DNA from: a virus
Virus record (IMG/VR): IMGVR_UViG_3300012930_000012
Location: 9,468-73,467 of that record
Reading direction: 5' to 3' (one strand)
DNA: 64,000 nucleotides
Shown here: positions 16,193 through 34,967 of the stretch, one piece after another
Position numbering within the stretch: the stretch's first letter is position 1
How the letters are laid out: every line of letters starts with the position of its first letter
Translations under genes and position numbers: made by a program
The notes under the pieces: model-generated
Databases searched by the model: none
Seen by the model: only the letters and a program-made list of their open reading frames with translations
Told to the model about the DNA's origin: nothing

Positions 16193-16482
16193 AGACGGAA
16201 GTGTGCGACCACGATTGCTTTGCTGAGGCGGCCACAGAATCACAGGCCATGCCAGGCCGGGTGGGCTGGTTCATCTACGTGGCCAACGATGACGACTCTC
16301 ACACCCATTTCCGCGGCAACACGGCGTTCGCCGGCAGGGCGCTGGCGGAGCTAGCCCAGAAGGTTATTGCCGGGCACGAGAACACCGGCTGTGTGCAATG
16401 TGACACCACGGCCTTGGCTCTTGCGAATGCTTTGAAGGTTTACCAGGCCACCATGGCATACGCCCGGGGACCAAAATGCTAA
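16189..16482 (+). CDS. Hypothetical protein
   Basis: RBS AAGGAG; coupled to neighbours. Confidence 0.5.
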   Translation: MKTEVCDHDCFAEAATESQAMPGRVGWFIYVANDDDSHTHFRGNTAFAGRALAELAQKVIAGHENTGCVQCDTTALALANALKVYQATMAYARGPKC

Positions 16483-17366
16483 CCCCCTTGGGCGCCCTTG
16501 TGCATTGGGTGAGAGAACGCGAATTGATTCGCGTTCAGAAAGACCGCGGTGAACCTTTCCCGTGGACCGACGATAAGATCCTTCGCACCTATCGCTTTTG
16601 CAACGTGCGCCGCGAGGATGACCGGGTCACCGTATGGATCGCGAAGAACATTCGCGAGCCATACGCGGACCACCATCACCTCTGGTTCATGCTGTGCACG
16701 GCCAGAATGATAAACTGGCCGCACACGTTGGGCCTCCTTATAGGAGACCCAACACGCCCCCCAGAAGAGCGCATCTACCCCAACGCCTGGCCGGACTCAG
16801 CGTCCTTCTCACCCTCCGCCATGGCCGATGGGCTCGAGGACGTAGCGTCCATGGGCAAGGCGTTCACGGGCGCCTACATCATCCCATCGCCCGGCAAGGG
16901 GGAAAAGAAGCCACGCTGGATGGCCCAATGGGTGCTGGGTAACCTGTGGAAGGCCCGCGCCAGGTTTGAAACCCACTTTTCCCGCAATCCGTCGCTGCGG
17001 AGCACGCACAACCTTTTGACGACATTTGATTGCTGGGGCAACTTCTTAGCCTACCAGGCCATCATCGACATGCGCCACACGAGCTTGCTCTCAGAGGTCC
17101 CTGATCGGAACACCTGGTGCGCGGCCGGGCCAGGGACGATAAGAGGTCTGAATCGCCTTGCGGGCAGACCTCTTATCGCCCCCCTGACCCAGGAGCGAGC
17201 GCTCCTTGAAATTCAGTCACTCCAGCCCGTGGTGTGTCGGGAAACTGGCATGGACTTTGAACTGTACGAAATAACCGGCATCCTCTGTGAGACCGACAAA
17301 TACCTCCGGGTAATGAACGGTGAGGGGGAGCCGCGGGCACGCTACGTGCCGGGGAGGGGGGCGTGA
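16476..17366 (+). CDS. aGPT-Pplase1 / 5-hmdU DNA kinase helical-domain family (base hypermodification)
   Basis: PWTDDKILRTYRFCNVRREDDRVT, FTGAY, FLAYQAIID, GPGTIRGL, LCETDKY.R match the family pattern as I recall it. Confidence 0.8.
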   Translation: MLTPLGALVHWVRERELIRVQKDRGEPFPWTDDKILRTYRFCNVRREDDRVTVWIAKNIREPYADHHHLWFMLCTARMINWPHTLGLLIGDPTRPPEERIYPNAWPDSASFSPSAMADGLEDVASMGKAFTGAYIIPSPGKGEKKPRWMAQWVLGNLWKARARFETHFSRNPSLRSTHNLLTTFDCWGNFLAYQAIIDMRHTSLLSEVPDRNTWCAAGPGTIRGLNRLAGRPLIAPLTQERALLEIQSLQPVVCRETGMDFELYEITGILCETDKYLRVMNGEGEPRARYVPGRGA

Positions 17367-17716
17367 CCGAATTCCTTCAGATGAGCGATGTGCCCGGTGT
17401 CAAAGGCGGGAGAATTAAGGGTGCTTGGGCCGTCTCCGTGACGGATTGCATGAATAAACTAAGGCGATACCGTTGCGTCACGAGCGCGGGGACAAATGGT
17501 GCCATAAACGTGTGGAGAGCTGATGGAGGAAAATATCGCTGTACATTCTGCGTCTACCGTGTGGCCAGAAGTGAGCCCATTTACCGCACCAAAAAAGAAG
17601 TGAAAGCGTGGCTAAAAATTTGGTTCCCTAGACAATACAGAACCTCGCCTGGGGGCACCGGGCACGCCGTTCGCCGGCAGCGGCTACAAACCGCCGGCAA
17701 TAGGAGAAGACCATGA
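17363..17716 (+). CDS. Hypothetical basic protein
   Basis: Coupled ORF with lower GC than its flanks. Confidence 0.45.
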   Translation: MTEFLQMSDVPGVKGGRIKGAWAVSVTDCMNKLRRYRCVTSAGTNGAINVWRADGGKYRCTFCVYRVARSEPIYRTKKEVKAWLKIWFPRQYRTSPGGTGHAVRRQRLQTAGNRRRP

Positions 17717-18564
17717 CTGAAGAAGTGAAGAGTGGGCAAGAAAATCCGTTACCTCCTACCCCGCAAGCGGGCCAGGAGGTAACCGTTTACGACCCTGGCA
17801 GCGATGCCGGGGCGGGCATGGAAAATGTCACCCGTGATGAATACGCCATACCATTCATCCGCATCCTTGACGCCAAGAGCCCACAAGTATCCCCGCCGGC
17901 AGCCGGTGGCATACCGGGCGCCAAGCCGGGGTCCATTTTTAACGTCTCGACCAACGAGGTCTACGACGGGGATAAGGGTGTAGAATTTATCCCCGTGCAC
18001 CGCGACCACCACTTCGTGGAATGGATTCCAAAGAAGGAGGACGGCTCCGGTGGCGGCTTTGTCGGCATCCGGGCGGTGGACGATCCTTTGGTCACGGAGC
18101 TGCGGGCCAAGCACGGCCAGTTCGGTAAGCTCCCCACGAGCGACGGCCACGAGCTGGCGGAAACCTATTACCTGTACGGCTTGCTGGTGGTGGAGGGCAT
18201 GGCCACCCCGGTGCTCATTGGTTTTTCCAGCACGCAGATAAAAAAGTACCGCAACTTCATCACCCGGGTCATGGGCATCACGTACCAGGGGGAGAAGACG
18301 GCCGCCAATCCCAACGGGATCATACGACCTCCTATGTGGGCGCACCGCTGGCGCTTTCAAACGGTCTTCGAGAAGAAGGGAACGTTTTCCTGGTACGGCT
18401 GGCGCATTGGCTTGGTGGAGGACCCACCGCTCAAAAGCCGGCTTAAAACCACGGACCCGTTCTACATCCAGGGTCGGGAACTTTACAACACCATCAAAGA
18501 AGGGCGCGTCGTGGTGAAACACGACACCGAAAAGCAGCCCGTGGACGAAGAAATACCGTTCTAA
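17713..18564 (+). CDS. ssDNA-binding/annealing protein
   Basis: GAGMENV...IPFIRIL..SPQV, FSSTQIKK, WYGW; acidic C-terminal tip DEEIPF. Confidence 0.7.
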   Translation: MTEEVKSGQENPLPPTPQAGQEVTVYDPGSDAGAGMENVTRDEYAIPFIRILDAKSPQVSPPAAGGIPGAKPGSIFNVSTNEVYDGDKGVEFIPVHRDHHFVEWIPKKEDGSGGGFVGIRAVDDPLVTELRAKHGQFGKLPTSDGHELAETYYLYGLLVVEGMATPVLIGFSSTQIKKYRNFITRVMGITYQGEKTAANPNGIIRPPMWAHRWRFQTVFEKKGTFSWYGWRIGLVEDPPLKSRLKTTDPFYIQGRELYNTIKEGRVVVKHDTEKQPVDEEIPF

Positions 18565-18581
18565 GGACGTAACGTAAGGTT

Positions 18582-18613
18582 GGCGGCGCCGCTCCGCAAA
18601 GGGCGGCGTTGCC
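18582..18613 (+). promoter_or_regulatory. 13-bp GC-rich hairpin between the ssb-like gene and the primase
   Basis: GGCGGCGCCGCTC-CGCAAA-GGGCGGCGTTGCC; no U tract. Confidence 0.55.
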
Positions 18614-18626
18614 GCCTGGGGGTTAC

Positions 18627-20156
18627 ATGTCACTTGCCGGTGATTTCAAACGCCTGTTCGATGGGCTAGACCGCTCTTACGGCCGCTATGTCGTGCCGAC
18701 CGGCGCGCGTCCAAACGATAAGGGCAAGCTCCACGACCCATCCTGGGCACGCACCGTGCACGGGGAGGTAACGCTTGAGCTTTGGGAACAGCACCTTGAA
18801 GGACGCTTTGGGCTAGGGATCGTTCCCATTAGGGACGATGCCACGTGTGTCTTTGGCGCCATAGACGTTGACATCTATCCGTTGGATCTTATAGACCTTG
18901 TAGCCTACGTTAAAAAGATGGAACTCCCCTTGGTGGTGTGCCGCACCAAATCTGGCGGCGCCCACCTGTACTTGTTTCTCACAGCCCCCGCCTCGGCGGA
19001 GCTTGTGAGAAGCAAGCTAATGGAATGGGCCGTGGTGCTGGGCTACCCCGGCGTTGAAGTATTCCCCAAGCAAACCAGGCTAGCCTCCGAAAAAGATGAT
19101 GGTTCCTGGATCAATGCACCCTACAACGGTGGCAAACGATCAACCAGGTACGCGCTTAAACCCGACGGTGCCGCCATGTCGTCGGAGGAGTTTGTCATCG
19201 CTGCGCAACGCTCAGCCATAACCCCGCAAAAACTGGCCGACTTTGAAATCCCCGCCGATGAAACCTCCGGCGACCTATTCTTAGGCGGCCCCCCTTGCCT
19301 CCAGACGCTATCCCGTAAGGGGTTTGGAGATTGGCAGAACAATGGGCTGTTCAACGTGGCGGTCTACCTCCGTAAGCGATGGGGCGACGGTTGGGAGGAC
19401 AGGCTCGACGCTTACAATCATAAGTACATGAACCCGCCGGTCTCCTCGAAAGATTTAGCCAACATCATCAAGTCGGTTAAGAAAAAAGCGTACTCGTATA
19501 TGTGCAAGCAAGAGCCCATCTGCGGCGTGTGCAACCGCCAGGTTTGCCTCACTCGGGACTTTGGTGTGGGCGGCCTTGGCGACGACCCCGGCGCCGTGCT
19601 GGGGGAGCTGTTGAAGCTCGAGACCGACCCGCCCACCTATATTTGGGACGTGGATGCGGCCCGTATTGAACTTACAGTCGATGACCTCATGGACCAGCGG
19701 CGCTTCCACAAGCTGGTGGTACAGCGCCTTAACAAGTGGCCCAACATGGTCAAGCCATCTGTGTGGCAAACCATCGTCCGGGATCGGCTGGCCCGGGTTG
19801 AGGTGGTTGAAGTGCCCGAAGACGCCACGCGAGAGGGTCAGTTCTGGGTGCACGTGCAACGGTTTTGCACCTCCAAGGTTCGCGGCCGGAGCATGGATGA
19901 GCTATTGCTGGGAAAGCCTTTCACCGAGGATGGCCGCACCTACTTTTGCTCGACCGACCTCATCCAGTATTTGAACCAGCACCGTTTTAACGGAGTCACC
20001 GATAAGGAGGTTTACAAGTGGATGCGTAAACGCGGGGTGACGCACCACTCAGGCAACCTCAAGGGCAAGTTCGTCAACTACTGGAGCTTGCCGGCATTTC
20101 CAGAGCAAACCGTGGACCACGATGTACCGCACGCGGCCCCGGTGGAGCGTATGTAA
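18627..20156 (+). CDS. AEP-superfamily primase (TOTE-like primase domain plus PriCT-like region)
   Basis: HLEG..GLG, FGAIDVD (DxD), RTKSGGAHLYLF, EVFPKQ, GPPCL, Cys cluster C..EPI...CN...C. Confidence 0.8.
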   Translation: MSLAGDFKRLFDGLDRSYGRYVVPTGARPNDKGKLHDPSWARTVHGEVTLELWEQHLEGRFGLGIVPIRDDATCVFGAIDVDIYPLDLIDLVAYVKKMELPLVVCRTKSGGAHLYLFLTAPASAELVRSKLMEWAVVLGYPGVEVFPKQTRLASEKDDGSWINAPYNGGKRSTRYALKPDGAAMSSEEFVIAAQRSAITPQKLADFEIPADETSGDLFLGGPPCLQTLSRKGFGDWQNNGLFNVAVYLRKRWGDGWEDRLDAYNHKYMNPPVSSKDLANIIKSVKKKAYSYMCKQEPICGVCNRQVCLTRDFGVGGLGDDPGAVLGELLKLETDPPTYIWDVDAARIELTVDDLMDQRRFHKLVVQRLNKWPNMVKPSVWQTIVRDRLARVEVVEVPEDATREGQFWVHVQRFCTSKVRGRSMDELLLGKPFTEDGRTYFCSTDLIQYLNQHRFNGVTDKEVYKWMRKRGVTHHSGNLKGKFVNYWSLPAFPEQTVDHDVPHAAPVERM

Positions 20157-21298
20157 TGGACCTCAAACCCCTAAGCCCAGTAACCATTGACCGCGAGCGA
20201 ACAAAGCTGGGCAAACGCGGTGAGCTACGCTGGCTGCACGTAAGACAGCTGGTCGTGGACCCTCGATACCAGCGGGCGGTTGGCCTTAAAGGCACAGACA
20301 ATATCAAAAAGATCGCGAAGGAATTCTCCTGGAGCTTCTTTTCCCCGGTCATCGTCTCCCCACGAAAGAGCGGCCAATACGCAATAATAGACGGGCAACA
20401 CCGCGCCACGGCGGCCGTATCGCGTGGGGATATCGAGGAAATCCCGTGCCTGGTGCTGGCGGCAACACCAGAGGAAGAGGCAATGGCCTTCGCCAAGATC
20501 AACGGTACCGTAACAAAAGTCTCGCCGCTGGCCATCTTCCGCGCCGAGTTTATGGCGGCCAAGCCAGACGTGATGCGCCTAACCGAAATTGTCTTCCGCG
20601 CCGATGTTGTAATCTTGGGCTATCCCAAAACCAAAGACAAGATGCTGGTCGGGGAAACCATGTCTGTTGTGTCAATTAAAGATTGCCTACGCAAGTTTGG
20701 GGAAAAGGTTTTGGTGGCGGCCTTGCGGACCATTACCAAAACGGGGAATGGGAACCCTGGAATGCTAAAGGAAGAGGTTATATCCGGCACGTGCGACATA
20801 TTGTCCAATCACCCCCATTGGTGGGTAGATGAACCAAAGCTCTTAGCAACCGTGAATGCGGTTGGCATAGTGGAACTCCACAGGCGAGCATCCATAGCCA
20901 AAGGTGCCGCCGGAAAAGGCAGCTATCGCGAGCACTACGCCTCCGCGTTTCTATCAGCCGTAGCACCGGCCTTTAAACCCACCCAGGTAGCCGTGGGTGT
21001 CCATGCCCCCCTGGCTTCGCTACCTACACTACAAAAACCTGTCAACCACGATCGTGCTCTCATTGAGGCGGCCTTGGCCGCCGGCAAGGTACGACGGTTT
21101 GACACCTCAGATTCCAGTGAGTTTTGGGTGCTAGCGGAATACATGCTCCATCGCACTGGTAAGGAATACAAACTTCTTAAGCGCAAGCCATCGCTGGATG
21201 GCCGAATCCTTGATTGGGACAAGTTCTATGAACTTGTAAACCGCGAACGTGTCAAGGAAAAGAAACCGCCTATAACCCCCAAGCAAGGAGCAAAATGA
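20156..21298 (+). CDS. ParB/Srx-like N-terminal domain protein (DUF6551-like)
   Basis: LVVDPRYQR, IIDGQHRATAA, EEAMAFAKIN. Confidence 0.75.
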   Translation: MDLKPLSPVTIDRERTKLGKRGELRWLHVRQLVVDPRYQRAVGLKGTDNIKKIAKEFSWSFFSPVIVSPRKSGQYAIIDGQHRATAAVSRGDIEEIPCLVLAATPEEEAMAFAKINGTVTKVSPLAIFRAEFMAAKPDVMRLTEIVFRADVVILGYPKTKDKMLVGETMSVVSIKDCLRKFGEKVLVAALRTITKTGNGNPGMLKEEVISGTCDILSNHPHWWVDEPKLLATVNAVGIVELHRRASIAKGAAGKGSYREHYASAFLSAVAPAFKPTQVAVGVHAPLASLPTLQKPVNHDRALIEAALAAGKVRRFDTSDSSEFWVLAEYMLHRTGKEYKLLKRKPSLDGRILDWDKFYELVNRERVKEKKPPITPKQGAK

Positions 21299-21439
21299 TG
21301 GACGAGGATGAGCGCTACAGACGCACTCGGGAGCGGCTAGGCATAGGCAACTTGCCCCCTGACCAAAGAATGAAAGAACGCAATTCAACAAACCAGGCGG
21401 CCAACCCAACCAAGGGCAGCAACCAAAGGAGCATTCACA

Positions 21440-23182: not shown

Positions 23183-23694
23183 GTACGCACGCGCTAAAGC
23201 CAAGCATAGCCGTGAAGCCGGTTTGTGTCTTTCAGGACTGGCTGTTCGCTCTTACAATGCAGCAACAGTCTGTTTTGGTATTGGCGTGTCGTGGGCCTGA
23301 TGGGGTGGCTAAGTTTCATCCGGTCAAGCCAATCGTAGCACGTTACCGCGCAACCGTACTCAAAGCTGCTTATCTTGGCCGGGCGATGCGTGTGGACGAA
23401 GGTGATGACACTACCTTCATGACACTGATAGATTTTAGCAATGATGAGCACTGGATAGCCATGTGCCAAAGCTTCTTTGACAATGTCGATGAGGCACCCC
23501 ACCACTACTACATGCACTTGTTACACGGGGCTCAGATAATTGGTTACAAGCACCCTATGGAAACGTTCCGCCATCGTTGGGGTGAATTTTATGCAAGGTG
23601 CTGCCGCGACCTTCACCTGTACCCAGAAAGTGAAGAACAAATGGATAAACGACTGGGAGACTGGAATCGTAAACACTGGGATGTACTCAAATGA
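23179..23694 (+). CDS. Conserved His-rich phage protein of unknown function
   Basis: QDW...MQQQSVL.LACRGPDG, PHHYYMHLLH, IIGYKHP. Confidence 0.65.
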   Translation: MSTHALKPSIAVKPVCVFQDWLFALTMQQQSVLVLACRGPDGVAKFHPVKPIVARYRATVLKAAYLGRAMRVDEGDDTTFMTLIDFSNDEHWIAMCQSFFDNVDEAPHHYYMHLLHGAQIIGYKHPMETFRHRWGEFYARCCRDLHLYPESEEQMDKRLGDWNRKHWDVLK

Positions 23695-23888
23695 CATTTT
23701 TGACGGTTTACTTGCTGATTGGAACCCTACTGGGTTTTATGGTCTTGTCAGAACGCGAACACAGAGTCTGGCAGCAGTGGCTCCTCTACCCGGTGCTTTT
23801 CGCTCTCCTAGGCGGCTTTTTTCTCTTGTTCCGCATAATGGCAAACAACGCCCGGGACATAGCCGAAGACCTGGATGCGAAAGAATGA
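23691..23888 (+). CDS. Small membrane protein (2 TM)
   Basis: Two hydrophobic stretches; ATGA overlaps. Confidence 0.5.
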   Translation: MTFLTVYLLIGTLLGFMVLSEREHRVWQQWLLYPVLFALLGGFFLLFRIMANNARDIAEDLDAKE

Positions 23889-24058
23889 CACCGGGCCAAC
23901 ACGCTGACCGCGCTTTAACCTTGGTCAACCAGGCCAGTGGGTCGTTGGGTTATATGGTCATCAAGCGCAAGCTCCAGCGGTGGCGGCTGGCTGAGGTGGT
24001 GCGCAAGCTAGAAAGCGCCTTGGCTGACCTAAAACGTGCCACGGGGGAGGATTTGTGA
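23885..24058 (+). CDS. Hypothetical protein
   Basis: ATGA-coupled start MTPGQH. Confidence 0.45.
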   Translation: MTPGQHADRALTLVNQASGSLGYMVIKRKLQRWRLAEVVRKLESALADLKRATGEDL

Positions 24059-25755: not shown

Positions 25756-25988
25756 CCGTTTCCAAGGAGCTGGCCGCACACGAGGCTTGGGTGCGCGACA
25801 ATGCCGCCTACTACTCGGCGGTTATCTTCCGCGGCCGGGGACAATTCTACCGCAAGGAGGCCCCCACGCTGGAGGGTATCCGTGCGCTGGCACGCGAGAT
25901 GCTTGTGGAGGTGGGCGGCTTGCGCCCGGCCGGCATCTACGCGGTGCGGGACGCCTACGAGGTTCATGTGGAGAACGTGATACCATGA
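25752..25988 (+). CDS. Hypothetical protein
   Basis: GTGA/ATGA coupling. Confidence 0.55.
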   Translation: MTVSKELAAHEAWVRDNAAYYSAVIFRGRGQFYRKEAPTLEGIRALAREMLVEVGGLRPAGIYAVRDAYEVHVENVIP

Positions 25989-26620
25989 GCGTGTACCTCA
26001 TTACCTACCGTAACTACTTGGAGCGTGTGCGGGTGTACCGCTATGAGACGATACAGGATGCGGATCGGGCGCTGGCGCTGCCGGACGCCGACCAGGCGGT
26101 AAGCGGCTTTGTTGCCTCCGTGCCGCACAACAGTGTGAATACGAGCACCACGCTCCTCCAGGATTTGCTTGACCAGTGGCGCAAGCCAGATGAACCTGAA
26201 CATGATCTTGGAACCCACGGCAAGGTGAAGCAACGCTTCTTTACCGTGCTTGAATCAACTTACGGCCACATTCCTCTGAGTGTGGCACCAGCCTTGCCGG
26301 CACCTGGCGCACCGGCCGCTGAAACCAACCCCGCGCCAACAATGGAGACTGCAATGGCAAAGAAGGCAAAAAAGACACCGAAGGCGAAAAAGGAAGCCAA
26401 CGGCCCAAAGGCGCCCCGCGCATTGAAGCAGGGCATGGTGTTCGCGCTCAAGGGCTTCGTGCTCAAGAACCCGGGCATCACGGACGAAGACTTGATGGCG
26501 AAGCTCAAGGGCGACGGCTTCAAGCCGGCCGAATCCTCGGTGGCCACGTTCCGCCAGGACTTTGTGCACTCCCTGAGGTTTCTCAACCTCCAGGGCTACA
26601 AGGTGCCGGAACCCGGCTAA
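25985..26620 (+). CDS. Putative DNA-binding protein with Lys-rich linker and C-terminal helical domain
   Basis: MAKKAKKTPKAKKE linker; internal in-frame ATG at 26354 with its own GGAG. Confidence 0.6.
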   Translation: MSVYLITYRNYLERVRVYRYETIQDADRALALPDADQAVSGFVASVPHNSVNTSTTLLQDLLDQWRKPDEPEHDLGTHGKVKQRFFTVLESTYGHIPLSVAPALPAPGAPAAETNPAPTMETAMAKKAKKTPKAKKEANGPKAPRALKQGMVFALKGFVLKNPGITDEDLMAKLKGDGFKPAESSVATFRQDFVHSLRFLNLQGYKVPEPG

Positions 26621-27396
26621 TGTTGGACATACACACCTTCGCGTACTTGGATTCACCTACGCCGGTTCAGGTGCGCGAAGGTGTGTTCCTAAAGCGGGAC
26701 GATTTATTTCTCGCAGCTGGAGCACCGGGTGGCAAGGCCAGGACTTGCTGGCACCTGTCACAAGGCGCAAAGGGCCTTGTGACAGCGTCCAGCCGGGCAT
26801 CGCCACAAATGAACATTGTGGCCCGCATTGCCGCCCACCTGGGCATCCCAGCCAGGCTCCATTGCCCCCAGGGTGCTTTCACACCGGAGATGAACGAGGC
26901 CCGCTCCTTTGGAGCGGTCATCGTTCAGCATCGCGCCGGCTACAACTCGGTCATAAAGGCCCGCGCCAAGGCCGACGCTTTGACACTTGGTTGGACCCAC
27001 ATACCGTTTGGGATGGAATGCCAGGAGGCCGTGAAGCAAACGGCCACACAAGTGGCACATCTTCCGGCGGAAATACGCCGCGTGGTCATGGCCGTTGGTA
27101 GCGGCATGTCGCTGGCCGGCGTGCTCAATGGGCTCACCCAGCACCGGCTAAACATCCCCATCCTAGGTGTCGTGGTGGGCGCCGACCCCACGGCCAGGCT
27201 CACCCAGTACGCCCCACTATTCTGGCGCACTGTGGTGGAATTGGTGCAGCCCGGCATCGATTATCACAAACCCGCACCATTGACGGACATCGGAGATGTC
27301 CATCTTGACCCCATCTACGAGGCCAAGTGTTTGCCATATCTTAAAGAGGATGACCTCTTTTGGCTGGTGGGCATACGGGCGAGTGCCATGCAATGA
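26620..27396 (+). CDS. PLP-dependent enzyme (fold type II, ACC deaminase/cysteine synthase-like)
   Basis: LKRDDL...GGKAR (Schiff-base Lys), SPQ, VGSGMSLAG phosphate loop, LDPIYEAK. Confidence 0.85.
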   Translation: MLDIHTFAYLDSPTPVQVREGVFLKRDDLFLAAGAPGGKARTCWHLSQGAKGLVTASSRASPQMNIVARIAAHLGIPARLHCPQGAFTPEMNEARSFGAVIVQHRAGYNSVIKARAKADALTLGWTHIPFGMECQEAVKQTATQVAHLPAEIRRVVMAVGSGMSLAGVLNGLTQHRLNIPILGVVVGADPTARLTQYAPLFWRTVVELVQPGIDYHKPAPLTDIGDVHLDPIYEAKCLPYLKEDDLFWLVGIRASAMQ

Positions 27397-28166
27397 CTGA
27401 CGACCTCCTCTTTAGCAAGAAGAGTCAAAACCGCCTCAACGAAATCATGAGCGGAACGGAGGATGGTGGATTTTCAACCGGCACCTCGATCTTCGACCCC
27501 GTGCTGTGTGAACTGGTGTACCGTTGGTTCTGCCCAGGGGGGGGACAGATCATTGATCCCTTTGCCGGCGGGTCCGTGCGCGGCATCGTGGCCGCCAAGT
27601 TAGGCTATGCCTACACAGGTATTGACTTATCTAGCAGACAGCTGGAAGCAAACCGCATCCAGGCCGCCACCATTTGCAAGGATGGGCCAACGCCAACCTG
27701 GGTGGACGGCAACAGCCTGGAAATTGAAGCCTTACTGGAAGACGTGCGTGCGGACCTTGTATTTTCCTGCCCACCATACGCTGATTTAGAAATTTATTCG
27801 GATGACGAGCGGGACCTCTCAACCATGCCGTATGAAGAATTCCGTTCGGTGTACACAGAAATCATCGCCGCGTGCGTGCGGATGCTTAAACCCAACCGCT
27901 TCGCCTGTTTCGTGGTGGGGGACATCCGCGATAAAGACGGCTTTTACCGCGGGTTCCCATGGCATACGGTCCAAGCGTTCCAAGATGCAGGTGCCCGGCT
28001 GTACAACGAGGCCATCCTTGTTACGGCCGTGGGGAGCTTGCCGGTGCGCATCACCCGGCAATTTTCAGGCGGGCGCAAGCTAGGCAAGACGCATCAGAAC
28101 TTATTTGTCTTTTGCAAGGGAGATCCCATGTTAGCGGCGAGGGCGTGCGGAGCCAAAGATGACTAG
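27393..28166 (+). CDS. SAM-dependent amino-DNA methyltransferase catalytic body (N-terminal module absent)
   Basis: TSIFDPVLCE, motif I DPFAGGSVRG, motif IV SCPPY, RKLGKTHQN; ATGA-coupled to the PLP enzyme. Confidence 0.88.
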   Translation: MTDDLLFSKKSQNRLNEIMSGTEDGGFSTGTSIFDPVLCELVYRWFCPGGGQIIDPFAGGSVRGIVAAKLGYAYTGIDLSSRQLEANRIQAATICKDGPTPTWVDGNSLEIEALLEDVRADLVFSCPPYADLEIYSDDERDLSTMPYEEFRSVYTEIIAACVRMLKPNRFACFVVGDIRDKDGFYRGFPWHTVQAFQDAGARLYNEAILVTAVGSLPVRITRQFSGGRKLGKTHQNLFVFCKGDPMLAARACGAKDD

Positions 28167-28404
28167 TCTACCCATTGACTATCGACGCCGGCCCTGGAAG
28201 GCCAAGTACATAGACACCGAGTGTCTAGCAACAAATCGCTGGTGCATCTTGGGAGAATATCAAGATGGCACTGTTAGCATCACAGACGGAACAGACGATA
28301 TAATGGAACACGTGCCAAAAGACGTGGCTCAAAACATCGTTGATGCCCGTAACACCTTTGTTGACACCCTCATGAAGCACATTGGCTATGCACGAAACGA
28401 TTAA
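28159..28404 (+). CDS. Hypothetical protein, 81 aa
   Basis: RBS GGAG; overlaps both neighbours. Confidence 0.55.
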   Translation: MTSLPIDYRRRPWKAKYIDTECLATNRWCILGEYQDGTVSITDGTDDIMEHVPKDVAQNIVDARNTFVDTLMKHIGYARND

Positions 28405-29344
28405 CTTCCTAAAACGCGCACTATCCCGCGCCCCTAATGCCGGCATGTTCGGCTGCTACCACGTGAGCGAAGGCTACATGTTCGCCCAGAACGAAAGCCT
28501 CCAGGCCGTGGTCCCGCTTGAATCATCCGATAGCTTTTCCGTGCCCGGCGAGGAGCTTGAAGCCATGCTGGCGCGGATGCACAGCGACCCACACGTGGAA
28601 ATAGGCGACGGCGAGCTACGCATCAAGAGCGGTAGGCTCCGCGGCAACATCCCGTGCGTGCCCGGCACCCCACCCAGCATATTCACCCGCGACGTCGACT
28701 GGCTCCCCCTGCCCGACGCCCTGGTGCCGGCGTTGCAAAAGGCCACCCAGTTCCTCGTGGGCACCAGCCTCATCGGGTGGACAGGGGGCGTGCGGCTCAT
28801 GGACGGGCGATTGACGACCGTCAATAATCTGTGCGGCATTGACTTGGCGGTGCCGGGTTGGCAATCCACGCCATCAATTCTCACAAAGGATGGGGCGGAG
28901 TTTTTGATGGCAGATCCGCCGTGCGATTACGCGGCCAAGGCTGGGGCTTTGTTGTTCCGCTGGCCCGATGACCGCTCGGTCCAGTGCCAGCTTATTGACC
29001 AGGTGATGCCTGAGCTGGTGGACGACATCTTTGCCAAGGCTGGCCAGGATGCGCCCGTGGAAATAACCGCCGAGTGGCGCGATGCCTTCGCGGATGCCGC
29101 AGCCATATCAGATGAGACGGTCGAGCTACATGCGGGTCATCTCAAGGTGGGTAAAGGCTCATCCAAGGTCACCCTAGAGGTTTCCACGGCTGTGCCGGCG
29201 GACCACGTGTCGTACTGGAACACCAAGGTGCTGGCTCCGATGGTAGCGGTGGCCACCCATTGGAATCCGCTGGCGCACCCCAAGCCGGCGCTGTTCCGTG
29301 GACCGGGGCTGTACGGCGTTGTGATGGGAGTGATGCGGCGATGA
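28388..29344 (+). CDS. Sliding-clamp (DNA Pol III beta)-like protein
   Basis: About 318 aa with a beta-clamp-like pattern (AQNE.L...F.VPG..L..., L.IKSGRLR, PALF.G...GVVMG); coupled to the polymerase. Confidence 0.6.
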   Translation: MHETINFLKRALSRAPNAGMFGCYHVSEGYMFAQNESLQAVVPLESSDSFSVPGEELEAMLARMHSDPHVEIGDGELRIKSGRLRGNIPCVPGTPPSIFTRDVDWLPLPDALVPALQKATQFLVGTSLIGWTGGVRLMDGRLTTVNNLCGIDLAVPGWQSTPSILTKDGAEFLMADPPCDYAAKAGALLFRWPDDRSVQCQLIDQVMPELVDDIFAKAGQDAPVEITAEWRDAFADAAAISDETVELHAGHLKVGKGSSKVTLEVSTAVPADHVSYWNTKVLAPMVAVATHWNPLAHPKPALFRGPGLYGVVMGVMRR

Positions 29345-31764
29345 GTGACAAGAAAGAAACCCCATCGCTCGCGGGTGGGCTAACGTTTGGGATGACCAGC
29401 GGCCCATACGATGGCCGCGAGGAGCGTCGTAAGAATAAGGCAAAGGTCGATAGTGCGTTGTACGGGGACGGGCTATTGGGGGATTCGCTTGCGCCCAAAC
29501 GTAGCGGCGAGCTGGCCAACAAGTTCATGATACCGCCGTTCACCGTGTTCAACGCGCGTGAGGGTTGGTGGCAGGATCGCAAGGCAGCCTGGCTGGCGCT
29601 GGGCATCCAGAGCGAGCTAGGGCGCGGTGGGGATGAAATTGCCGTGGCGGATGCCGCGGCGCTGGACAGCGCCCGCGCTCGAAGCAAGGCCAGTAGCCAG
29701 GCGGTAGTCGGCGGCCGTGGTACGGCCATGTCAAACGCTCTGGCACCCCGAAAACGCAACACCATCCATCGCGCAGACCCCAGCATAACCGTGGTGCATA
29801 ACCCACCCCCATTGATGGAGCGGGCGGCACCGTGGGTGGCCCCGTCAGAACTCCCATCACTTCGCGGCGTGAAACGATTATGCGCCGATGTTGAGACCAG
29901 GGATGAGCAACTGCTTGAAATAGGCCCCGGTTTCCACAGGGGGACCTCCTACATCGTGGGGCTCGGCATAGGCACCAACGATGGTCGGCGTTTCTACTTC
30001 CCCACCAGACACGAGGGTGGCGGTAACTTAGATGAGGGCGTGGTCCAAAAATGGGCGCGCGAGGAGCTAAACGCTTATGATGGCGAGCTGGTTGGCGCCC
30101 ATAACATCTACGATCTCGAGGCGCTAGGCACCTGGGGGGTCACGTTTCCTAACGTTAAGGTCCACCACGATATCCAGGTATGTGAACCCTTGCTGGATGA
30201 GTGGCGCAACTCGTACACACTGGAAGCCATCGCCCAGGACTACCTTGGCGAGGGCAAAGTGGAGGGTACGCTCCGGGAAGCCGCGGCGTTGCACGGCGCC
30301 ACCACCAATTCTCAAATCAAAAAGATCTTATGGAAATTGCCGGCCGGGTACGTGGGAGCTTACGCGGAGGGGGATGTCGATCTCCCTCTGCGCATTCTCC
30401 CGCTCCAGCTAAAGCGCCTCACGGAAGAAAACCTCGATGAAGTTTACACCGTGGAGCGCAAGCTCATCCCCATCTTGCTCGCCATGCGCCAGCGCGGGAT
30501 ACCCGTCAACACCGACCAGGCGGAGTACGTGCGGGAACAGCTCACTTTCACCCGCGATGCGGCGCTTAAGCGGGTACGGGATATCGCTGGCCCACAGGCG
30601 GAGCTTATGGCCCCGGAGAGCTTTGCCCAGGCGTTTGTGGACCGCGGGCTGACACCACCTCTAACACCTAGTTCGGGCAAGCCACGGAGCGGCGGAGGTT
30701 TTAACCCAGACAAGTTTTCCATCACCAAGGACTGGCTCAAGGCGCACCAGAACGACGAGCTGGCCGCAGCGCTGTTAGAGGGCCGCGGGGTAGAGCACAT
30801 CATCAACACCTACATCAACGGCCATATCCTAACGCACTCGGTCAACGGCCGGGTGCATTGTGAATTTAACCAGTTAAAATCAGAGGATGAAAAGGGAACC
30901 ATAGCCCGTTTCTCATCCTCCAACCCCAACATGCAAAATTTACCTATGCGGGAGGAAGAGCTGGCCGCCATGATCCGCGGCATGTTCCGCCCCGAGGATG
31001 GTGAGACCTGGGTGCGGCACGACCTCTCCCAAATTGAATATCGGCTACTGGCTCACTTTGCCGTTGGGCCGGGGTCTGAGGAGTGCCGGCGCCAGTACCG
31101 CGAGGACCCCAAGACCGACTACCACAAGCTGGTGGCCACCTGGCTTGGGATTGATCCCGGCGACAAGCACCGCCGAGTCCAGGTTAAAGGCATCAACTTC
31201 GCCAAGGGCTATGGTGCTGGGGCACGCAAGCTGGCCTACCTCATCGGTTGTTCGTTATCGGAGGCCGAGGAGTTCGTTGCCCTTTACGAACAAAAGTTAC
31301 CGTTCGCCAAGAGCACCTACGATGCCGCCATGCGATGGGCGGAAAAGCAAGGATACGTGACGACGATCCTTGGCCGCCGGCAGCGCTTCCTCCTTTGGGA
31401 ACCCTTTGACAACTACCAGCGCGAGAATCCTCCGTTACGGCACGAAGCCGCGCTTAAGGAGTACGGCCAGCGCATCAAACGCTTCAAGAGTTACGCCGCG
31501 CTCAACCGCAAGCTTCAAGGGTCCGGCGCCGACGTCATCAAGAAAGGCATGGTGGATGCTTACGAGGCCGGCACGTTTGCCGTACTCGGCGCCCCCCTGG
31601 TCACGGTGCACGACGAGCTAGGATGGTCGGTACCGAACACGCCTCAAGGTACTGAGGCGTGTTCAGTAGCCCATCGTTGCCTGGAAAAGGCAGTGACGCT
31701 CAAGGTGCCGGTGTACGTGGATGAAGGACGTGGCAAGGATTGGGGGGAGGCCAGCGCGGGATGA
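29341..31764 (+). CDS. polA: Family A DNA polymerase with 3'-5' exonuclease and an N-terminal methyltransferase-derived module
   Basis: Exonuclease DVET/YD/YAEGD; RFSSSNPNMQN; motif A DLSQIEYR; motif B RVQVKGINFAKGYG; motif C VHDEL; ~160-aa N-terminal extension. Confidence 0.92.
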   Translation: MSDKKETPSLAGGLTFGMTSGPYDGREERRKNKAKVDSALYGDGLLGDSLAPKRSGELANKFMIPPFTVFNAREGWWQDRKAAWLALGIQSELGRGGDEIAVADAAALDSARARSKASSQAVVGGRGTAMSNALAPRKRNTIHRADPSITVVHNPPPLMERAAPWVAPSELPSLRGVKRLCADVETRDEQLLEIGPGFHRGTSYIVGLGIGTNDGRRFYFPTRHEGGGNLDEGVVQKWAREELNAYDGELVGAHNIYDLEALGTWGVTFPNVKVHHDIQVCEPLLDEWRNSYTLEAIAQDYLGEGKVEGTLREAAALHGATTNSQIKKILWKLPAGYVGAYAEGDVDLPLRILPLQLKRLTEENLDEVYTVERKLIPILLAMRQRGIPVNTDQAEYVREQLTFTRDAALKRVRDIAGPQAELMAPESFAQAFVDRGLTPPLTPSSGKPRSGGGFNPDKFSITKDWLKAHQNDELAAALLEGRGVEHIINTYINGHILTHSVNGRVHCEFNQLKSEDEKGTIARFSSSNPNMQNLPMREEELAAMIRGMFRPEDGETWVRHDLSQIEYRLLAHFAVGPGSEECRRQYREDPKTDYHKLVATWLGIDPGDKHRRVQVKGINFAKGYGAGARKLAYLIGCSLSEAEEFVALYEQKLPFAKSTYDAAMRWAEKQGYVTTILGRRQRFLLWEPFDNYQRENPPLRHEAALKEYGQRIKRFKSYAALNRKLQGSGADVIKKGMVDAYEAGTFAVLGAPLVTVHDELGWSVPNTPQGTEACSVAHRCLEKAVTLKVPVYVDEGRGKDWGEASAG

Positions 31765-32234
31765 TACTCTCACTTCAAACCATCAGGGATGCGGGCATCA
31801 TATCGCCATGGTGTGAACGCAGCGAGTTCAAAGGCCGCCATGGGGTGCTCACCTACGGGGCCTCCAGCGCCGGGTACGACATCCGCGCTGAGTTTGATTC
31901 AAAGGAGCGCCTTGCGTTCGTGGAGCTGCGCCCAGGGGGGTTCAGGCTGGCGTCCACGGTGGAGCGTTTTACCATGCCGACCGACGTGGTGGGCATTGTC
32001 CATGATAAAAGCTCGTGGGCTCGCCGCGGCCTGTGCGTGCAGAACACGGTCATAGAACCCGGGTGGTGCGGATACCTCACTCTGGAACTAACCAACCATG
32101 GGGTTGGTTGGTTGCATCTAGAGCGCGGGGTACCGCTGGCTCAAGTGGTGTTCCACCGGCTGGATAAGCCATCGGAACGGCCCTACACCGGCAAGTACCA
32201 GGACCAGGCCCGTGGGCCGCAGGAGGCAAAGTGA
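31761..32234 (+). CDS. dcd: dCTP deaminase / trimeric dUTPase family
   Basis: SAGYDIR, HDKSSWARRG, NTVIEPGWCGYLTLE, Y.GKYQDQ. Confidence 0.85.
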   Translation: MILSLQTIRDAGIISPWCERSEFKGRHGVLTYGASSAGYDIRAEFDSKERLAFVELRPGGFRLASTVERFTMPTDVVGIVHDKSSWARRGLCVQNTVIEPGWCGYLTLELTNHGVGWLHLERGVPLAQVVFHRLDKPSERPYTGKYQDQARGPQEAK

Positions 32235-32425
32235 ACTGGGAACGGGTCACAAAGGACAATCCTCCGGACAATAGGTTGGTATTGGCCAGCGATGGCGTGG
32301 GCCGGTGGTTAGATACACGATCCTCGTGGTGTCGCTCGTTGGTTTGCTACTTAGGTGGGCAGCGTCGAGTAGCAACTCATTTCATCCTACTAACCAATGA
32401 CATGCCGCCCAAGGAGAGACCGTGA
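32231..32425 (+). CDS. DUF551-like small protein
   Basis: MNW.RV....P...VL...ATH pattern. Confidence 0.5.
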   Translation: MNWERVTKDNPPDNRLVLASDGVGRWLDTRSSWCRSLVCYLGGQRRVATHFILLTNDMPPKERP

Positions 32426-32865
32426 ACCTCAAGGATAAGGTGTTTGCCGCGCTCGAGAATGCCCTGGCCAACGGCTACAACATGCGCGCGGACCCTGTTG
32501 ACTCAGTGTGCGTGGACCTGTGCACCTACGACGCCGATCTCGAGGATTACGATCCCGGGGAGTTGCGGGTGCACGTAACAGAATGGCAAATGGAGAAAAA
32601 ACACATGCAGACCTTAGATTTAACAACACCAGACACCGATGGGTATATCCCCGACCTGAGGCTCTTTGGGTCCAAGTGGCGGCACGCCGGGAACGGGCTC
32701 ACGTACGAGATCACGGGGTTCGTGTTCTTCGGCGATGAGGACCGTTGGGCGGTTATACATCGACGTGATGGCGCCCCGGTCATGTTTTCGCGGACCGTCC
32801 GTAACTTCTTTGGGCAACGCGGCAATGAGCCACGGTACACCGTTGTGAATAAGGTGCCGCGATGA
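32422..32865 (+). CDS. Hypothetical protein with a DUF1653-like C-terminal part
   Basis: WRH.G.G..Y.I...V...R....F.R....F. Confidence 0.55.
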   Translation: MNLKDKVFAALENALANGYNMRADPVDSVCVDLCTYDADLEDYDPGELRVHVTEWQMEKKHMQTLDLTTPDTDGYIPDLRLFGSKWRHAGNGLTYEITGFVFFGDEDRWAVIHRRDGAPVMFSRTVRNFFGQRGNEPRYTVVNKVPR

Positions 32866-33797
32866 TAGCCGCTCAGGTCGTTTGCGACAGCATTAGCGTG
32901 CAGGAACATCGCCCGCTGACGTTCAAACTGCGATACCCGAAGTTCATCCATGGCGAGTTCATGACCCACCGCCTCATCAGCCGCAACGCGAGTTCGTCCC
33001 GTGCGATCCCGACGAGCAAGCTCATCGAGGAGGTGCGGTCGGACGCGCTCCGGGCCGGGCCGGTGTTCTGGGGCGCAAACCAGAAGGGAATGCAAGCAGT
33101 AGAAGAACTAAGCGATGACCATTACCAAGGCACTCGTTTATCCCCCCGAATGCTAGCGCAAAATTATTGGAAGGATGCCGCACTCGAAGCGATGCGGATC
33201 GCTGAAGTTATGGTTGAGATTGGCGTTCACAAGCAGATCGTCAACCGCCTTCTCGAGCCGTTCTCCCACATTAACGTGGTGGCCACCGCCACCGAGTGGG
33301 ACAACTTCTTCGGCCTCCGCCTGCACCGCGACGCCCAGCCCGAGATGCGGGCGCTGGCCGTGGCCATGTGGGAGGCGCGCAAGGCGAGCACGCCCCGTCT
33401 GCTGAGGCCCGGCGAGTGGCACCTGCCGTTCGTCGACGGAGACGATGGGAAGGGCCATCCGATAACGTGGGACGAGAAGCTGGACGACATACAAGTCGCT
33501 ATAAAAGTCTCCGTCGCCCGCTGCGCAAGAGTTTCTTACGAGAGCTTCGAGACCGGCAAGCGGTCCACCGTCGAGGAGGACCTGCGGCTGTATGATCGGC
33601 TCCTGGGCGCGCAGCCGCTCCACGCGAGCCCGGCTGAGCACCAGGCGACGCCGGACATCCAAGAATGGGTAACGGCTAATGAATTAGGACCGCAATGGCT
33701 TCATCTTGGAGAGCACGGTAATCTCGTCGGCTGGCGTCAGTACCGTAAGATGCTGCCGAACGAGGCCGTCGCGCCGCTGCCGGAGGGTTATTCGTGA
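32862..33797 (+). CDS. thyX: Flavin-dependent thymidylate synthase (phage type)
   Basis: EFMTHRLISRNASSSRAIP, HKQIVNRLLEPF, NFFGLR, ARCARVSY, HASPAEH. Confidence 0.85.
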   Translation: MIAAQVVCDSISVQEHRPLTFKLRYPKFIHGEFMTHRLISRNASSSRAIPTSKLIEEVRSDALRAGPVFWGANQKGMQAVEELSDDHYQGTRLSPRMLAQNYWKDAALEAMRIAEVMVEIGVHKQIVNRLLEPFSHINVVATATEWDNFFGLRLHRDAQPEMRALAVAMWEARKASTPRLLRPGEWHLPFVDGDDGKGHPITWDEKLDDIQVAIKVSVARCARVSYESFETGKRSTVEEDLRLYDRLLGAQPLHASPAEHQATPDIQEWVTANELGPQWLHLGEHGNLVGWRQYRKMLPNEAVAPLPEGYS

Positions 33798-34276
33798 ACT
33801 CGCGTACCATCTACGTCGATCTTGACGGTACGCTGGCGGATTTTGATCGCCACTATCTATCCACCATAGGAGGGTTGTTGCCGCCCAAGTGGCGCCACCC
33901 CGACAACGCCCAAGATGTCGATTGGGAACGAATTGACGCCATCAACTTTTACGCCACCATGCCGCCCATGGATGACCACCGCTTGCTTTGGGACTACATA
34001 ACGCCGCACGGCCCGATCATTCTCACCGGGTGCCCCAAGATTGGCCGGGAGGGTGCCGAGCGTAATAAGCGGGAATGGGTAGCCCGGCACCTGGGGCCAA
34101 CGGTGCCGGTCATAACCTGCTTTTCAAGAGAGAAGGCACGCTACGCCAGCCCCGGCGCCATCCTTATTGACGATTGGGAGAAGTACAAGCACCTCTGGCT
34201 GGCTGCCGGCGGCGTGTGGGTGACCCACACCAGCGCCACGGCGACCATTGCATTGCTGAGGAGTCATGGAATTTAG
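33794..34276 (+). CDS. HAD-family 5'(3')-deoxyribonucleotidase
   Basis: IYVDLDGTLADF, ILTG, K..W, ILIDD. Confidence 0.8.
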   Translation: MNSRTIYVDLDGTLADFDRHYLSTIGGLLPPKWRHPDNAQDVDWERIDAINFYATMPPMDDHRLLWDYITPHGPIILTGCPKIGREGAERNKREWVARHLGPTVPVITCFSREKARYASPGAILIDDWEKYKHLWLAAGGVWVTHTSATATIALLRSHGI

Positions 34277-34292
34277 AGCAAGGAGAACCACA

Positions 34293-34967
34293 ATGTACGA
34301 CCCTGTGAAGGCCCGTGCCAACCTAGCCACCCACCAGCTTGTTAAAACCGGCGACCCTGACGCCATGGGCGCCATAGTAGACCGGAACGGCGAGGTCGTC
34401 CTCGGCTATTGCCGGCGGTGCCACGGCGGCGAAGCTGAGCTTGAAGATCAAAGCTGCCTAGAGCGTCTTGTTGCGATGTCGATTGCACACGAAAAAGCAA
34501 TGACATCAATTCAGCGGGCGGTGTCCCATGCCCAGGCCCGACGCTCGTGGGTCATTGGGGAGATGATGCTGACTTACCTAGACCTCCGTCGCGAGGATGC
34601 ATTGGCCCGCTATAATGAGATGCTGCCAGAGGGCGCCTTGCTGGCGGAGTTTGAGAGCCGCAACTCGGCCGAGCACGTGGCGGCCGACGGCACCGTGCGC
34701 AAAAGCCACTACGGCCCCGGGCGCCAGCCCTGGGATGATATTATGGCCGCCGGCTGGGGCGCACCGTTCGCGGCATCCTGTGTGCTCCGCTATCTCCGCC
34801 GTGATAAGGAACCCGAGCACAGCATCAAGAGCGCCCGCTGGTACTACACCAGGCTGAACGAGATGGTTGCCGCCAGCCGCCGTGTGCCCATGAGCTGGGA
34901 GGGCGAGGTACTAGCCAAGCTGAACCATCTTTTGAGCGATGAGGAGAAGGCGAGGTTGGTGCCATGA
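34293..34967 (+). CDS. Multi-module protein with a C-terminal DUF3310 (T7 gp1.7-like) domain
   Basis: SHYG...QPWD.I...F....VLRYL.R......SIKSARWY; start follows the AGAGCAAGGAGAACCAC motif. Confidence 0.6.
   Translation: MYDPVKARANLATHQLVKTGDPDAMGAIVDRNGEVVLGYCRRCHGGEAELEDQSCLERLVAMSIAHEKAMTSIQRAVSHAQARRSWVIGEMMLTYLDLRREDALARYNEMLPEGALLAEFESRNSAEHVAADGTVRKSHYGPGRQPWDDIMAAGWGAPFAASCVLRYLRRDKEPEHSIKSARWYYTRLNEMVAASRRVPMSWEGEVLAKLNHLLSDEEKARLVP

Follow-up and report, generated by a model that had tools for sequence, protein, structure and literature searches.

Gene clusters for thymidine hypermodification, such as those of phages M6, PaMx11 and ViI (Lee et al. 2018, 2021), combine a ThyA-like hydroxymethylase, a 5-hydroxymethyldeoxyuridine (5-hmdU) kinase and an amino-acid:DNA transferase with a gene of aGPT-Pplase clade 1 (Pplase1) and a fold-type-II pyridoxal 5'-phosphate (PLP) enzyme. 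According to the available text of Lee et al. (2021, PMC8989533), in which the Pplase clades are credited to Iyer et al. (2013), the kinase activity of M6 resides in the P-loop protein gp54, the kinase domain of SP10 is active alone, and the Pplase1 protein gp55 of M6 has no assigned function, reactions lacking gp55 having still yielded the Na-GlyT product in vitro. In Pam3, PAE1 (a relative of M6) and RHph_TM26, the Pplase1 homologue lies between a P-loop kinase, which it directly follows, and a ThyA-like synthase, and the kinases of RHph_TM26 and Pam3 carry the Walker A sequence GTNGSGKT. We analysed a window of 64,000 nucleotides, bases 9468-73467 of the 73,467-bp IMG/VR virus record IMGVR_UViG_3300012930_000012 (CheckV completeness of 100%, without end repeats), whose positions 16476 to 34967 had been described in an original prediction as a single hypermodification toolkit lacking its entry enzyme. 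This span resembles the known clusters in having one Pplase1 gene and one fold-type-II PLP enzyme in its replication arm, but the hydroxymethylase, the 5-hmdU kinase and the amino-acid:DNA transferase are absent from the whole genome. All positions given below are those of the window, and the genes are on the + strand unless otherwise indicated.

The results of our analysis showed that the span is probably made of three independent modules and not of one pathway deprived of its first enzyme. The single toolkit was abandoned because the Pplase1 belongs to a clade that lives without the hypermodification kit, because the closest relative of this virus (G001) has no Pplase1 and because no locus was found to be shared by Pplase1 and the PLP gene. 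The first module would be an ordinary supply of dTMP, in which a dCTP deaminase would feed a ThyX-type synthase with a deoxyribonucleotidase alongside. The second would be the lone Pplase1, apparently an optional cargo of many unrelated phages, carried without kinase, transferase or hydroxymethylase. The third would associate an S-adenosylmethionine (SAM)-dependent, permuted N6/N4 amino-methyltransferase (MTase) with a small PLP enzyme resembling 1-aminocyclopropane-1-carboxylate (ACC) deaminase and D-cysteine desulfhydrase. This third module is a single polypeptide in most relatives (ParB, a segment named here PPF, the N-terminal half of the MTase, the PLP domain and the C-terminal half of the MTase), whereas this phage and G001 have separate genes for the two enzymes and carry the PPF segment at the N-terminus of their replicative family A DNA polymerase (PolA). 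The MTase and its PLP partner may dock on the polymerase through this segment and modify DNA during its synthesis.

Searching for related loci with the Pplase1 protein alone returned no relative, and an alignment was therefore needed as query. A four-sequence alignment (A1) recovered 269 Pplase1 relatives from IMG/VR, the best 80 of which were retained as loci and labelled for kit genes by tblastn with reference kit proteins over flanks of at most 10 kb. No kit gene was present within 10 kb in 27 of the 80 loci, and the Pplase1 of these loci was 48-56% identical to that of the window; the 53 loci with kit genes encoded proteins that were mostly 36-47% identical to it. In a maximum-likelihood tree of 81 rows, which included 77 of the 80 loci (three were dropped for a match shorter than 230 residues or an internal stop), the window Pplase1 was placed in a 27-row clade (SH-aLRT 95) composed of 20 kit-less loci, six loci with short flanks and the window itself. 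All 54 kit-linked rows were located across one branch from this clade, a clustering that was reached by none of 500 label shuffles, and the two clades differ in five alignment columns only. The surroundings of the kit-less genes vary, integrases, primases, SNF2 helicases and terminases being found in these early regions, and clustering of the neighbours of the 27 orphan loci gave no family present in more than six of them.

Comparison with G001 (74,667 bp, with terminal repeats) showed that the PLP enzyme, the MTase, the PolA bearing the PPF segment, the clamp, the dCTP deaminase (Dcd), the ThyX, the ribonucleotide reductase (RNR) and the UvrD helicase are retained at 45-74% identity, and that Pplase1 is absent from that genome: only 1.5 kb, with nothing Pplase1-like in it, separates the gp33-like gene of G001 from the gp34-like one. 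No Pplase1, P-loop kinase, clade-2 transferase (Pplase2) or ThyA-like synthase was found in 80 loci of the PLP enzyme, and no PLP enzyme of the window type in the 80 Pplase1 loci. We conclude that this Pplase1 would be an optional cargo of a kit-independent clade and not the remains of a broken pathway. Two candidate companions of the orphan genes were considered and rejected: a homologue of the window's DUF6551 ParB was nearby in only 2 of the 27 loci, and DNA MTases, found near 8 of 22 loci scanned, belonged to five families, an association judged too loose to define a system. One of the kit-less loci (L008, positions 6901-8588) has a diversity-generating retroelement (bAvd gene plus reverse transcriptase) just upstream of a DUF5131 gene and the Pplase1.

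The PLP enzyme (258 residues, 26620..27396) matched the PALP profile with 50.4 bits (cut-off of 35) over residues 45-195. Its motifs are a lysine, K39, in GGKARTC, a glycine loop, VGSGMSLAG (G160-S161), and DPIYEAK, and all three were invariant over 27 aligned PLP sequences (A2). We matched these motifs to residues of ACC deaminase, GGK presumably holding the Schiff-base lysine and DPIYEAK corresponding to DPxYE(A/G)K. Its relatives number at least 671, with a length of about 250 residues, and many of them are labelled by JGI as ACC deaminase- or D-cysteine desulfhydrase-like. When a fused relative was submitted to Foldseek in place of the window protein, the top matches were the D-cysteine desulfhydrase 4d8t (E of 1.2e-12), the ACC deaminase homologue 1j0a and the ACC deaminase 1tzk. 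The enzyme can be classified, by motifs and fold, as a putative short fold-type-II member of the ACC-deaminase/D-cysteine-desulfhydrase kind. The fused relative had its best fold matches among these enzymes (E from 1e-12 to 2e-9), and the GGK lysine and DPxYE(A/G)K are common to them and the window enzyme, which differs in its length (about 250 residues and not about 330), in its identity of only 18-22% and in being either inserted into a DNA MTase or coupled to one. It also belongs to another PALP lineage than the PLP enzymes of Pam3 and PAE1, which gave no tblastn match to it.

As had been proposed, the PLP gene is translationally coupled to the MTase gene (27393..28166), whose ATG overlaps the PLP stop codon as ATGA (27393-27396). 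The MTase matched N6_N4_Mtase (PF01555) with 39.3-39.5 bits (cut-off of 26.7), and a PDB search with a profile of its family returned TTHA0409, CcrM, N4-cytosine MTases and M.PvuII. It is circularly permuted, motif I (DPFAGGS) being ahead of motif IV (S-C-P-P-Y), and departs in both respects from the canonical (D/N/S)PP(Y/F) and its IV-then-I order. The distribution of motif IV in the family was 44 SCPPY, 14 TCPPY, 3 GCPPY, 2 ACPPY and 2 TSPPY. A link between the cysteine of CPPY and the role of the PLP enzyme was considered and rejected, the same cysteine being present in the PLP-less phiFL3A gp36 and B054 gp77 as a trait of the family.

We then surveyed the loci of the PLP enzyme, using 80 retained of the 115 confirmed among 122 IMG/VR stretches. 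The MTase family of the window was carried by 72 of them. The PLP domain was inserted between the motif I half and the motif IV half of the MTase in 49, and a contiguous MTase was accompanied by a separate PLP gene nearby in 17. The MTase was not in the locus in eight. The commonest other neighbour was a terminase, in 11 loci, and nothing else recurred more often. A 2OG oxygenase, considered as a further partner, was rejected, being neither one of the recurrent neighbours of these 80 loci nor encoded in the window. The proposed association of the PLP enzyme with the MTase was upheld by these counts, and the pair can be taken, from its recurrence across genomes, as a real module; its linkage, its domain fusions and the conservation of its catalytic motifs were observed directly. 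In Microcystis phage Mae-JY30 (L169, positions 2139-4457), a ParB protein with the PPF segment is followed by a CPPY MTase and then by a 236-residue protein that has a DPHYDAK-like remnant and no PLP lysine motif; this protein may be a degenerate PLP domain.

The PPF segment, with the consensus RF.vPPFsVLdaR.G.WQ.RK.aW..LGi.SE.GR, was present in 65 of the 80 PLP loci, and in all but three of these 65 (62) it immediately precedes the MTase. It forms the N-terminus of minimal MTases of 327-369 residues that have no ParB domain, and in Mae-JY30 it is carried by the separate ParB protein beside the MTase. The MTase open reading frames (ORFs) of the window and of G001 lack this N-terminal segment, which is found instead on PolA. 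In the window it is the stretch FMIPPFTVFNAREGWWQDRKAAWLALGIQSELGRG, within an N-terminal extension of PolA (29341..29860; phrog_15396, 3.4e-14) that precedes the exonuclease and polymerase domains (29861..31764; PF00476, 184.8 bits; phrog_17). A search with residues 40-130 of PolA retrieved 146 proteins at E<=1e-5; the top 21 were 651-1168 residues long, 13 of them being annotated PF00476 and the remainder being ParB-MTase or PLP-containing proteins. One match, P0138 (1049 residues), unites in a single chain the PPF segment, PolA and a PLP domain that has 57% identity with that of the window, and another, P0141 (1168 residues), is a PPF-bearing PolA with a recorded intein-splicing domain (PF14890). 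Record lengths of 74,858, 33,712 and 72,429 recurred among both the PLP and the PolA-PPF matches, and these three coincidences suggest that the two occur in the same genomes.

A model of the complex between the window MTase (A5) and 100 residues of the PolA N-terminus (A4) scored 0.83 (0.84, 0.83 and 0.82 in separate runs), the best control scoring 0.00. Solved complexes reached this mark in 116 of 157 cases and mismatched pairs in 2 of 215, counts that are rough because custom alignments were used. The runs shared at least 36% of their contacts, with a partner predicted local distance difference test (pLDDT) of at least 50. On the segment side, the modelled interface is made of F17, PPF, W32, R35/K36 and W39 (A4 numbering), all of them invariant, and on the MTase side of residues 32-45, 59-69, 80-94 and 205-213, beside motif I. 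This model supports a docking of the MTase on the PolA N-terminus, and the suspected tie between this N-terminus and the PLP-MTase pair is borne out by the PPF segment, by the score of the complex and by the fusion found in P0138.

What the pair does to DNA is a matter of more tentative readings. The best of these holds that it installs a non-methyl group derived from an amino acid, either because the MTase would move the aminocarboxypropyl group of SAM or because the PLP enzyme would add a group derived from aminoacrylate. In a variant put forward in the original prediction, which may also hold, the SAM enzyme would transfer a non-methyl group and the PLP enzyme would trim it afterwards. The position of the PLP domain inside the MTase in 49 of the 80 loci, between the two motif halves and with its catalytic lysine invariant, the unusual and near-universal cysteine of motif IV and the existence of class I MTase folds that transfer the aminocarboxypropyl group, such as TYW2, all speak in its favour. 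However, PLP-less members with the same CPPY are annotated as plain adenine MTases, and the enzymes of the ACC-deaminase/D-cysteine-desulfhydrase family are known to catalyse eliminations and not additions to bases. We therefore hold this reading as doubtful, and we consider it just as doubtful that the PLP enzyme, the CPPY MTase and the PolA N-terminus form a machine tethered to the replisome that would write such an adduct on nascent DNA.

It is less likely still that the PLP enzyme is a metabolic support or an anti-defence function, for instance one that would destroy small molecules derived from SAM or cysteine while the MTase methylates. The best structural matches of the enzyme are indeed enzymes acting on small molecules (D-cysteine desulfhydrase, ACC deaminase and threonine deaminase), and the 17 loci with a PLP gene apart from the MTase and the eight without MTase are those expected of a free enzyme, but the insertion into the MTase and the fusion to PolA are hard to reconcile with such an enzyme.

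The original prediction had named the gene at 16476 an aGPT-Pplase1/5-hmdU-kinase-type gene. The first half of this name was retained: the 296-residue protein (16476..17366) matched PF18723 (HMUDK_hel) with 147.6 bits (cut-off of 25; E of 6.3e-43), residues 8-282 covering positions 7-277 of the 281 of the profile. The kinase half was not, and the label is misleading, because PF18723 is the helical domain only; the protein is all helical domain and has no Walker A. Pplase1 would be a paralogue of the amino-acid:DNA transferases, with a putative glycosylase-like fold of the helix-hairpin-helix type. The window protein is 40-47% identical to Pam3_50, PAE1_49 and TM26_007 and matched 162 cultured phage records, every one at less than 60% identity. 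Its AlphaFold2 (AF2) model (pLDDT of 93.9) is all-helical. The best VIA match of this model was the clade-2 transferase gp46 of PaMx11 (8z2n_B; Z of 10.9, rmsd of 4.0 over 218 residues), which was level with Qng1 (7uk3; Z of 10.4, rmsd of 5.1 over 220 residues) and with the archaeal MjOgg (3knt_A; Z of 10.1, rmsd of 4.1 over 188 residues), and for helical proteins a Z below about 13 may mean merely a common arrangement. Foldseek gave nothing at E<=0.001 for Pplase1, and a profile search of the PDB sequences gave nothing at E<=1.

The residues that are invariant in the family, including C42 and C271, were retained in the window protein. Because these residues, two cysteines among them, are intact, we infer that Pplase1 may still bind or act on DNA pyrimidines. 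C271 may be the equivalent, judging by its position, of Cys247, which the available part of PMC11472151 gives as the catalytic cysteine of PaMx11 gp46. In this phage, 5-phosphomethyl-dU cannot be the substrate. The window protein is like M6 gp55, ViI gp160 and Pam3 gp50 in its full-length PF18723 match, its 40-47% identity, its invariant residues and its all-helical fold, but unlike them it belongs to a separate, kit-less clade and adjoins neither a ThyA-like hydroxymethylase nor a P-loop kinase nor a clade-2 transferase.

The absence of a ThyA-fold enzyme, a TET/JBP dioxygenase and a clade-2 transferase, first noted in the span, was extended to the whole 73,467-bp record. The ThyA fold (PF00303) was found nowhere in the record, with a control that was positive in 10 of 14 genomes, and TET/JBP (PF12851) gave nothing in the record even at E<=10, with a weak control that was positive in 3 of 14 genomes and never above the cut-off. 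The kinases, clade-2 transferases, ThyA-like synthases, radical-SAM enzymes and PLP enzymes of Pam3, PAE1 and RHph_TM26 gave no tblastn match in the genome at E<=1e-3. The three reference P-loop kinases had none under E 0.1 and the clade-2 transferases Pam3_47, PAE1_43 and TM26_004 none under E 0.6, and no Pfam match to a clade-2 amino-acid:DNA transferase was obtained among the 93 ORFs scanned. The missing hydroxymethylase and transferase are not hidden outside the window either: the 9.4 kb beyond it are tail genes, encoding the tail sheath, a tape-measure-like protein and further structural proteins.

The genes upstream of Pplase1 did not supply a kinase. RHph_TM26 has a run of genes for proteins of 202, 97 and 334 residues, sizes that resemble those of the run formed here by a 212-residue DUF7307 or Pam3 gp33-like protein (15554..16192; PF23984, 79.8 bits), a cysteine-rich 97-residue ORF overlapping the start of Pplase1 (16189..16482) and Pplase1. 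The DUF7307 protein was considered as a hidden P-loop kinase and rejected, having no Walker A and no similarity to the reference kinases. The 97-residue ORF matched neither Pfam nor PHROG, and none of the 80 Pplase1 loci contained a homologue.

That this virus is a relic, descended from a hypermodifier of the M6/Pam3 type that has lost the hydroxymethylase, the kinase and the transferase and kept Pplase1 as a leftover, was judged very unlikely. It shares with Pam3 the gp32-, gp33- and gp34-like families, a class II RNR (65% identical to that of Pam3) and a Pam3_41-like gene, and its Pplase1 is 40% identical to Pam3 gp50, as would be expected of such a descendant. However, Pplase1 is intact with its family-invariant residues retained, and it groups with the kit-less genes of unrelated phages and not with those of Pam3 and M6. 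It is moreover an insertion between the gp33-like gene, on its left, and the gp34-like gene (17713..18564; PF23977, 165.5 bits), on its right, that is missing in the closest relative, a pattern resembling the gain of a cargo.

The genes of the dTMP-supply module, Dcd, ThyX and a HAD nucleotidase, were found as predicted, and all three are also present in G001. The dCTP deaminase (31740..32234), of the DCD/dUTPase fold, matched PF22769 with 72.9 bits and phrog_1663 at 3.5e-49. The 5'-3' deoxyribonucleotidase of the NT5C/HAD type (33794..34276) matched phrog_2643 at 7.3e-27, its Pfam NT5C score of 19.8 bits being under the cut-off of 24.8. The putative ThyX-type synthase (32862..33797; phrog_85, 5e-87) matched Thy1 (PF02511) with 57.8 bits (cut-off of 24.8) over profile positions 52-190 of 191 only. 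The canonical signature of ThyX is RHRxxS...S.R; that of the window protein is THRLISRNASSSR, in which the first arginine is substituted. A phmmer search of the PDB sequences with this ThyX gave no match. Its relatives were found in 1036 phage records, the best (50-52% identity) being those of N4-like Achromobacter and Erwinia phages, and it appears to belong to a divergent phage clade, including N4-like phages, that nothing connects with 5-hmdU. The suggestion that it could be a variant yielding hm-dUMP is unsupported, given the breadth of this clade and the absence of a kinase or transferase to use 5-hmdU. A single new pathway, in which ThyX or another enzyme would give an activated C5 group that Pplase1 would substitute and that the PLP enzyme and the MTase would tailor, is scarcely credible: the genes do share one early co-directional arm and ThyX chemistry does go via an exocyclic methylene (available text of Lee et al. 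2021, PMC8989533), but Pplase1 and the PLP-MTase pair co-occurred in none of 160 loci, G001 has ThyX, the PLP enzyme and the MTase without Pplase1, the ThyX clade is widespread among phages lacking a Pplase gene, and the kinase is absent.

Several observations weigh against three independent modules and against the chemistry attributed to the third. The TET/JBP negative depends on its weak control and a very divergent dioxygenase is possible; in the text available of PMC13229309, many phage dioxygenases are missed by PF12851 and ParB-dependent thymine dioxygenases exist. The kit-less label covers no more than 10 kb of flank, so that a distant kit is excluded solely for this genome and G001, and the gp32-, gp33- and gp34-like genes, the RNR and the Pam3_41-like gene are common to this phage and the Pam3/M6-like phages, which makes an old ancestry shared with a kit-bearing lineage possible. 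The motif IV sequence CPPY, which is not D/N/S-PPY, makes even amino-methylation an assumption, and its cysteine, which occurs in PLP-less members, is uninformative on the role of the PLP enzyme. Plain methylation with an unrelated side activity of the PLP enzyme is as compatible with the data as any other chemistry. The AF2 model of a fused relative of 702 residues (A3; pLDDT of 76.1) has a predicted template modelling score of 0.46 and therefore gives no indication of the mutual orientation of the PLP and SAM sites. The two partners of the modelled complex are the halves of a split gene, and the score may only mirror that likeness.

The genes of the span form a single co-directional early arm on the + strand of the ORF list, and megablast of positions 16000-36000 against the phage collection gave no match. 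A Pam3 gp32-like gene is located upstream at 13721 (Pfam/PHROG map). Pplase1 is followed by a 117-residue ORF at 17363, the gp34-like gene, a primase of the AEP type at 18609 and, with a start that overlaps the primase stop as TAATG (20154-20158, like the other overlaps read off the sequence), the gene at 20156..21298. The ParB-like nature announced for this gene was confirmed, its product being a ParB-CTPase-fold protein of the DUF6551 type (51 bits, cut-off of 26.8; phrog_1033), with ParB_N (18.1 bits) and GmrSD_N both under their cut-offs. In G001 this gene is missing between the primase and the RNR. Binding of CTP or ATP is reported for phage DUF6551 fusions in the available part of PMC12704722.

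The class II RNR at 21440 and a UvrD helicase at 24055 are followed by a gene for a 211-residue protein with a lysine-rich linker (25985..26620), which opens the coupled run by a TAATG overlap with the PLP start (26618-26622) and had no Pfam or PHROG match. The longest ORF at this place (25682-26620) begins with 101 codons that are rich in arginine and glycine and have an out-of-frame look; the longer start is probably over-extended, the true one being the ATG at 25985. Between the MTase and PolA is a sliding-clamp-like processivity factor (28382..29344; phrog_947, 1.9e-21), whose stop overlaps the PolA start as ATGA (29341-29344). A DUF3310 gene had been listed at the end of the span, but PF11753 had no match anywhere in the genome at E<=1, and the 233-residue ORF at 34266..34967 had no Pfam or PHROG match and was assigned to no family. 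An exonuclease gene is located at 35343. Farther downstream are a second UvrD-type helicase (40316-41953) and a homologue, 54% identical, of Pam3 gp41 ('DNA topoisomerase', phrog_6247; 42145-43056), both common to the replication module of Pam3/M6-like phages.

Other features were observed elsewhere in the window. On the - strand, a gene surrounded by head and packaging genes (1759-3702) encodes a 647-residue protein in which a large phrog_6216 body follows an N-terminal NUDIX domain (66 bits), and a phage NusG-like protein (10170-10886; PF02357, 47 bits) adjoins the terminase genes. In the tail region, also on the - strand, 56777-57823 and 60197-61627 gave matches to the Mtd second domain (21 bits) and to the ubiquitin-E1 FCCH domain (27 bits), respectively, both under their cut-offs. 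The GC content is 0.51 at 58001-60000 and about 0.58 elsewhere.

These results bear on how such genes are read. An isolated match to PF18723 is poor evidence for thymine hypermodification, an entire clade living without the kit. Phage DNA MTases with a built-in PLP enzyme form a large group (at least 671 PLP proteins, 115 IMG/VR stretches) that is apparently undescribed; searches of literature full text found no description of the PLP-MTase module, PMC11780129 naming ACC deaminase in its reference list only. In one phage lineage the pair seems to be wired to the replicative polymerase by a transplanted docking segment, which, if true, would be a compact form of replication-coupled modification. 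If the PLP domain joins the chemistry, the pair would represent a novel type of base modification in DNA, for which cultured carriers exist, and if the adduct-writing machine proved true, it would be a route of hypermodification independent of 5-hmdU, present in hundreds of uncultured phages and in Pam4 and Vincenzo.

The systems nearest to the third module are the phage N6/N4 MTases fused to ParB (PF02195 and PF01555), exemplified by gp36 of Enterococcus phage phiFL3A and gp77 of Listeria phage B054. ParB-N6/N4 MTase fusions are phage-enriched in a survey of ParB-CTPases (PMC12704722, available text), in which PLP has no occurrence. These proteins are of the same family as the window MTase (52% identical) and have the same PPF segment, motif I DPFAGGS and motif IV [ST]CPPY, but the window MTase is without ParB, has its PPF segment on PolA and is coupled to a PLP enzyme. 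Pseudanabaena phage Pam4 encodes the same PLP and MTase families in a single chain, gp70, ordered as ParB, PPF, MTase N-terminal half, PLP and MTase C-terminal half, and Mycobacterium phage Vincenzo encodes them as a ParB-MTase, gp1, followed by a separate 'carboxylate deaminase', gp2. No functional study of Pam4 gp70 or Vincenzo gp1-gp2 was found, and both are annotated by domain names alone; unlike the module of the window, they have no polymerase fusion. The nearest precedent for a polymerase as platform is the PolA-uracil-DNA glycosylase of SP-15 and YerA41, described in the available part of PMC13697223 as occurring in T-modified phages, in which a family A polymerase likewise carries a base-directed activity at the fork. 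In the window, however, the appended part is not a uracil-DNA glycosylase but a segment of about 60 residues on which the MTase would dock, and in P0138 a PLP domain is added to it.

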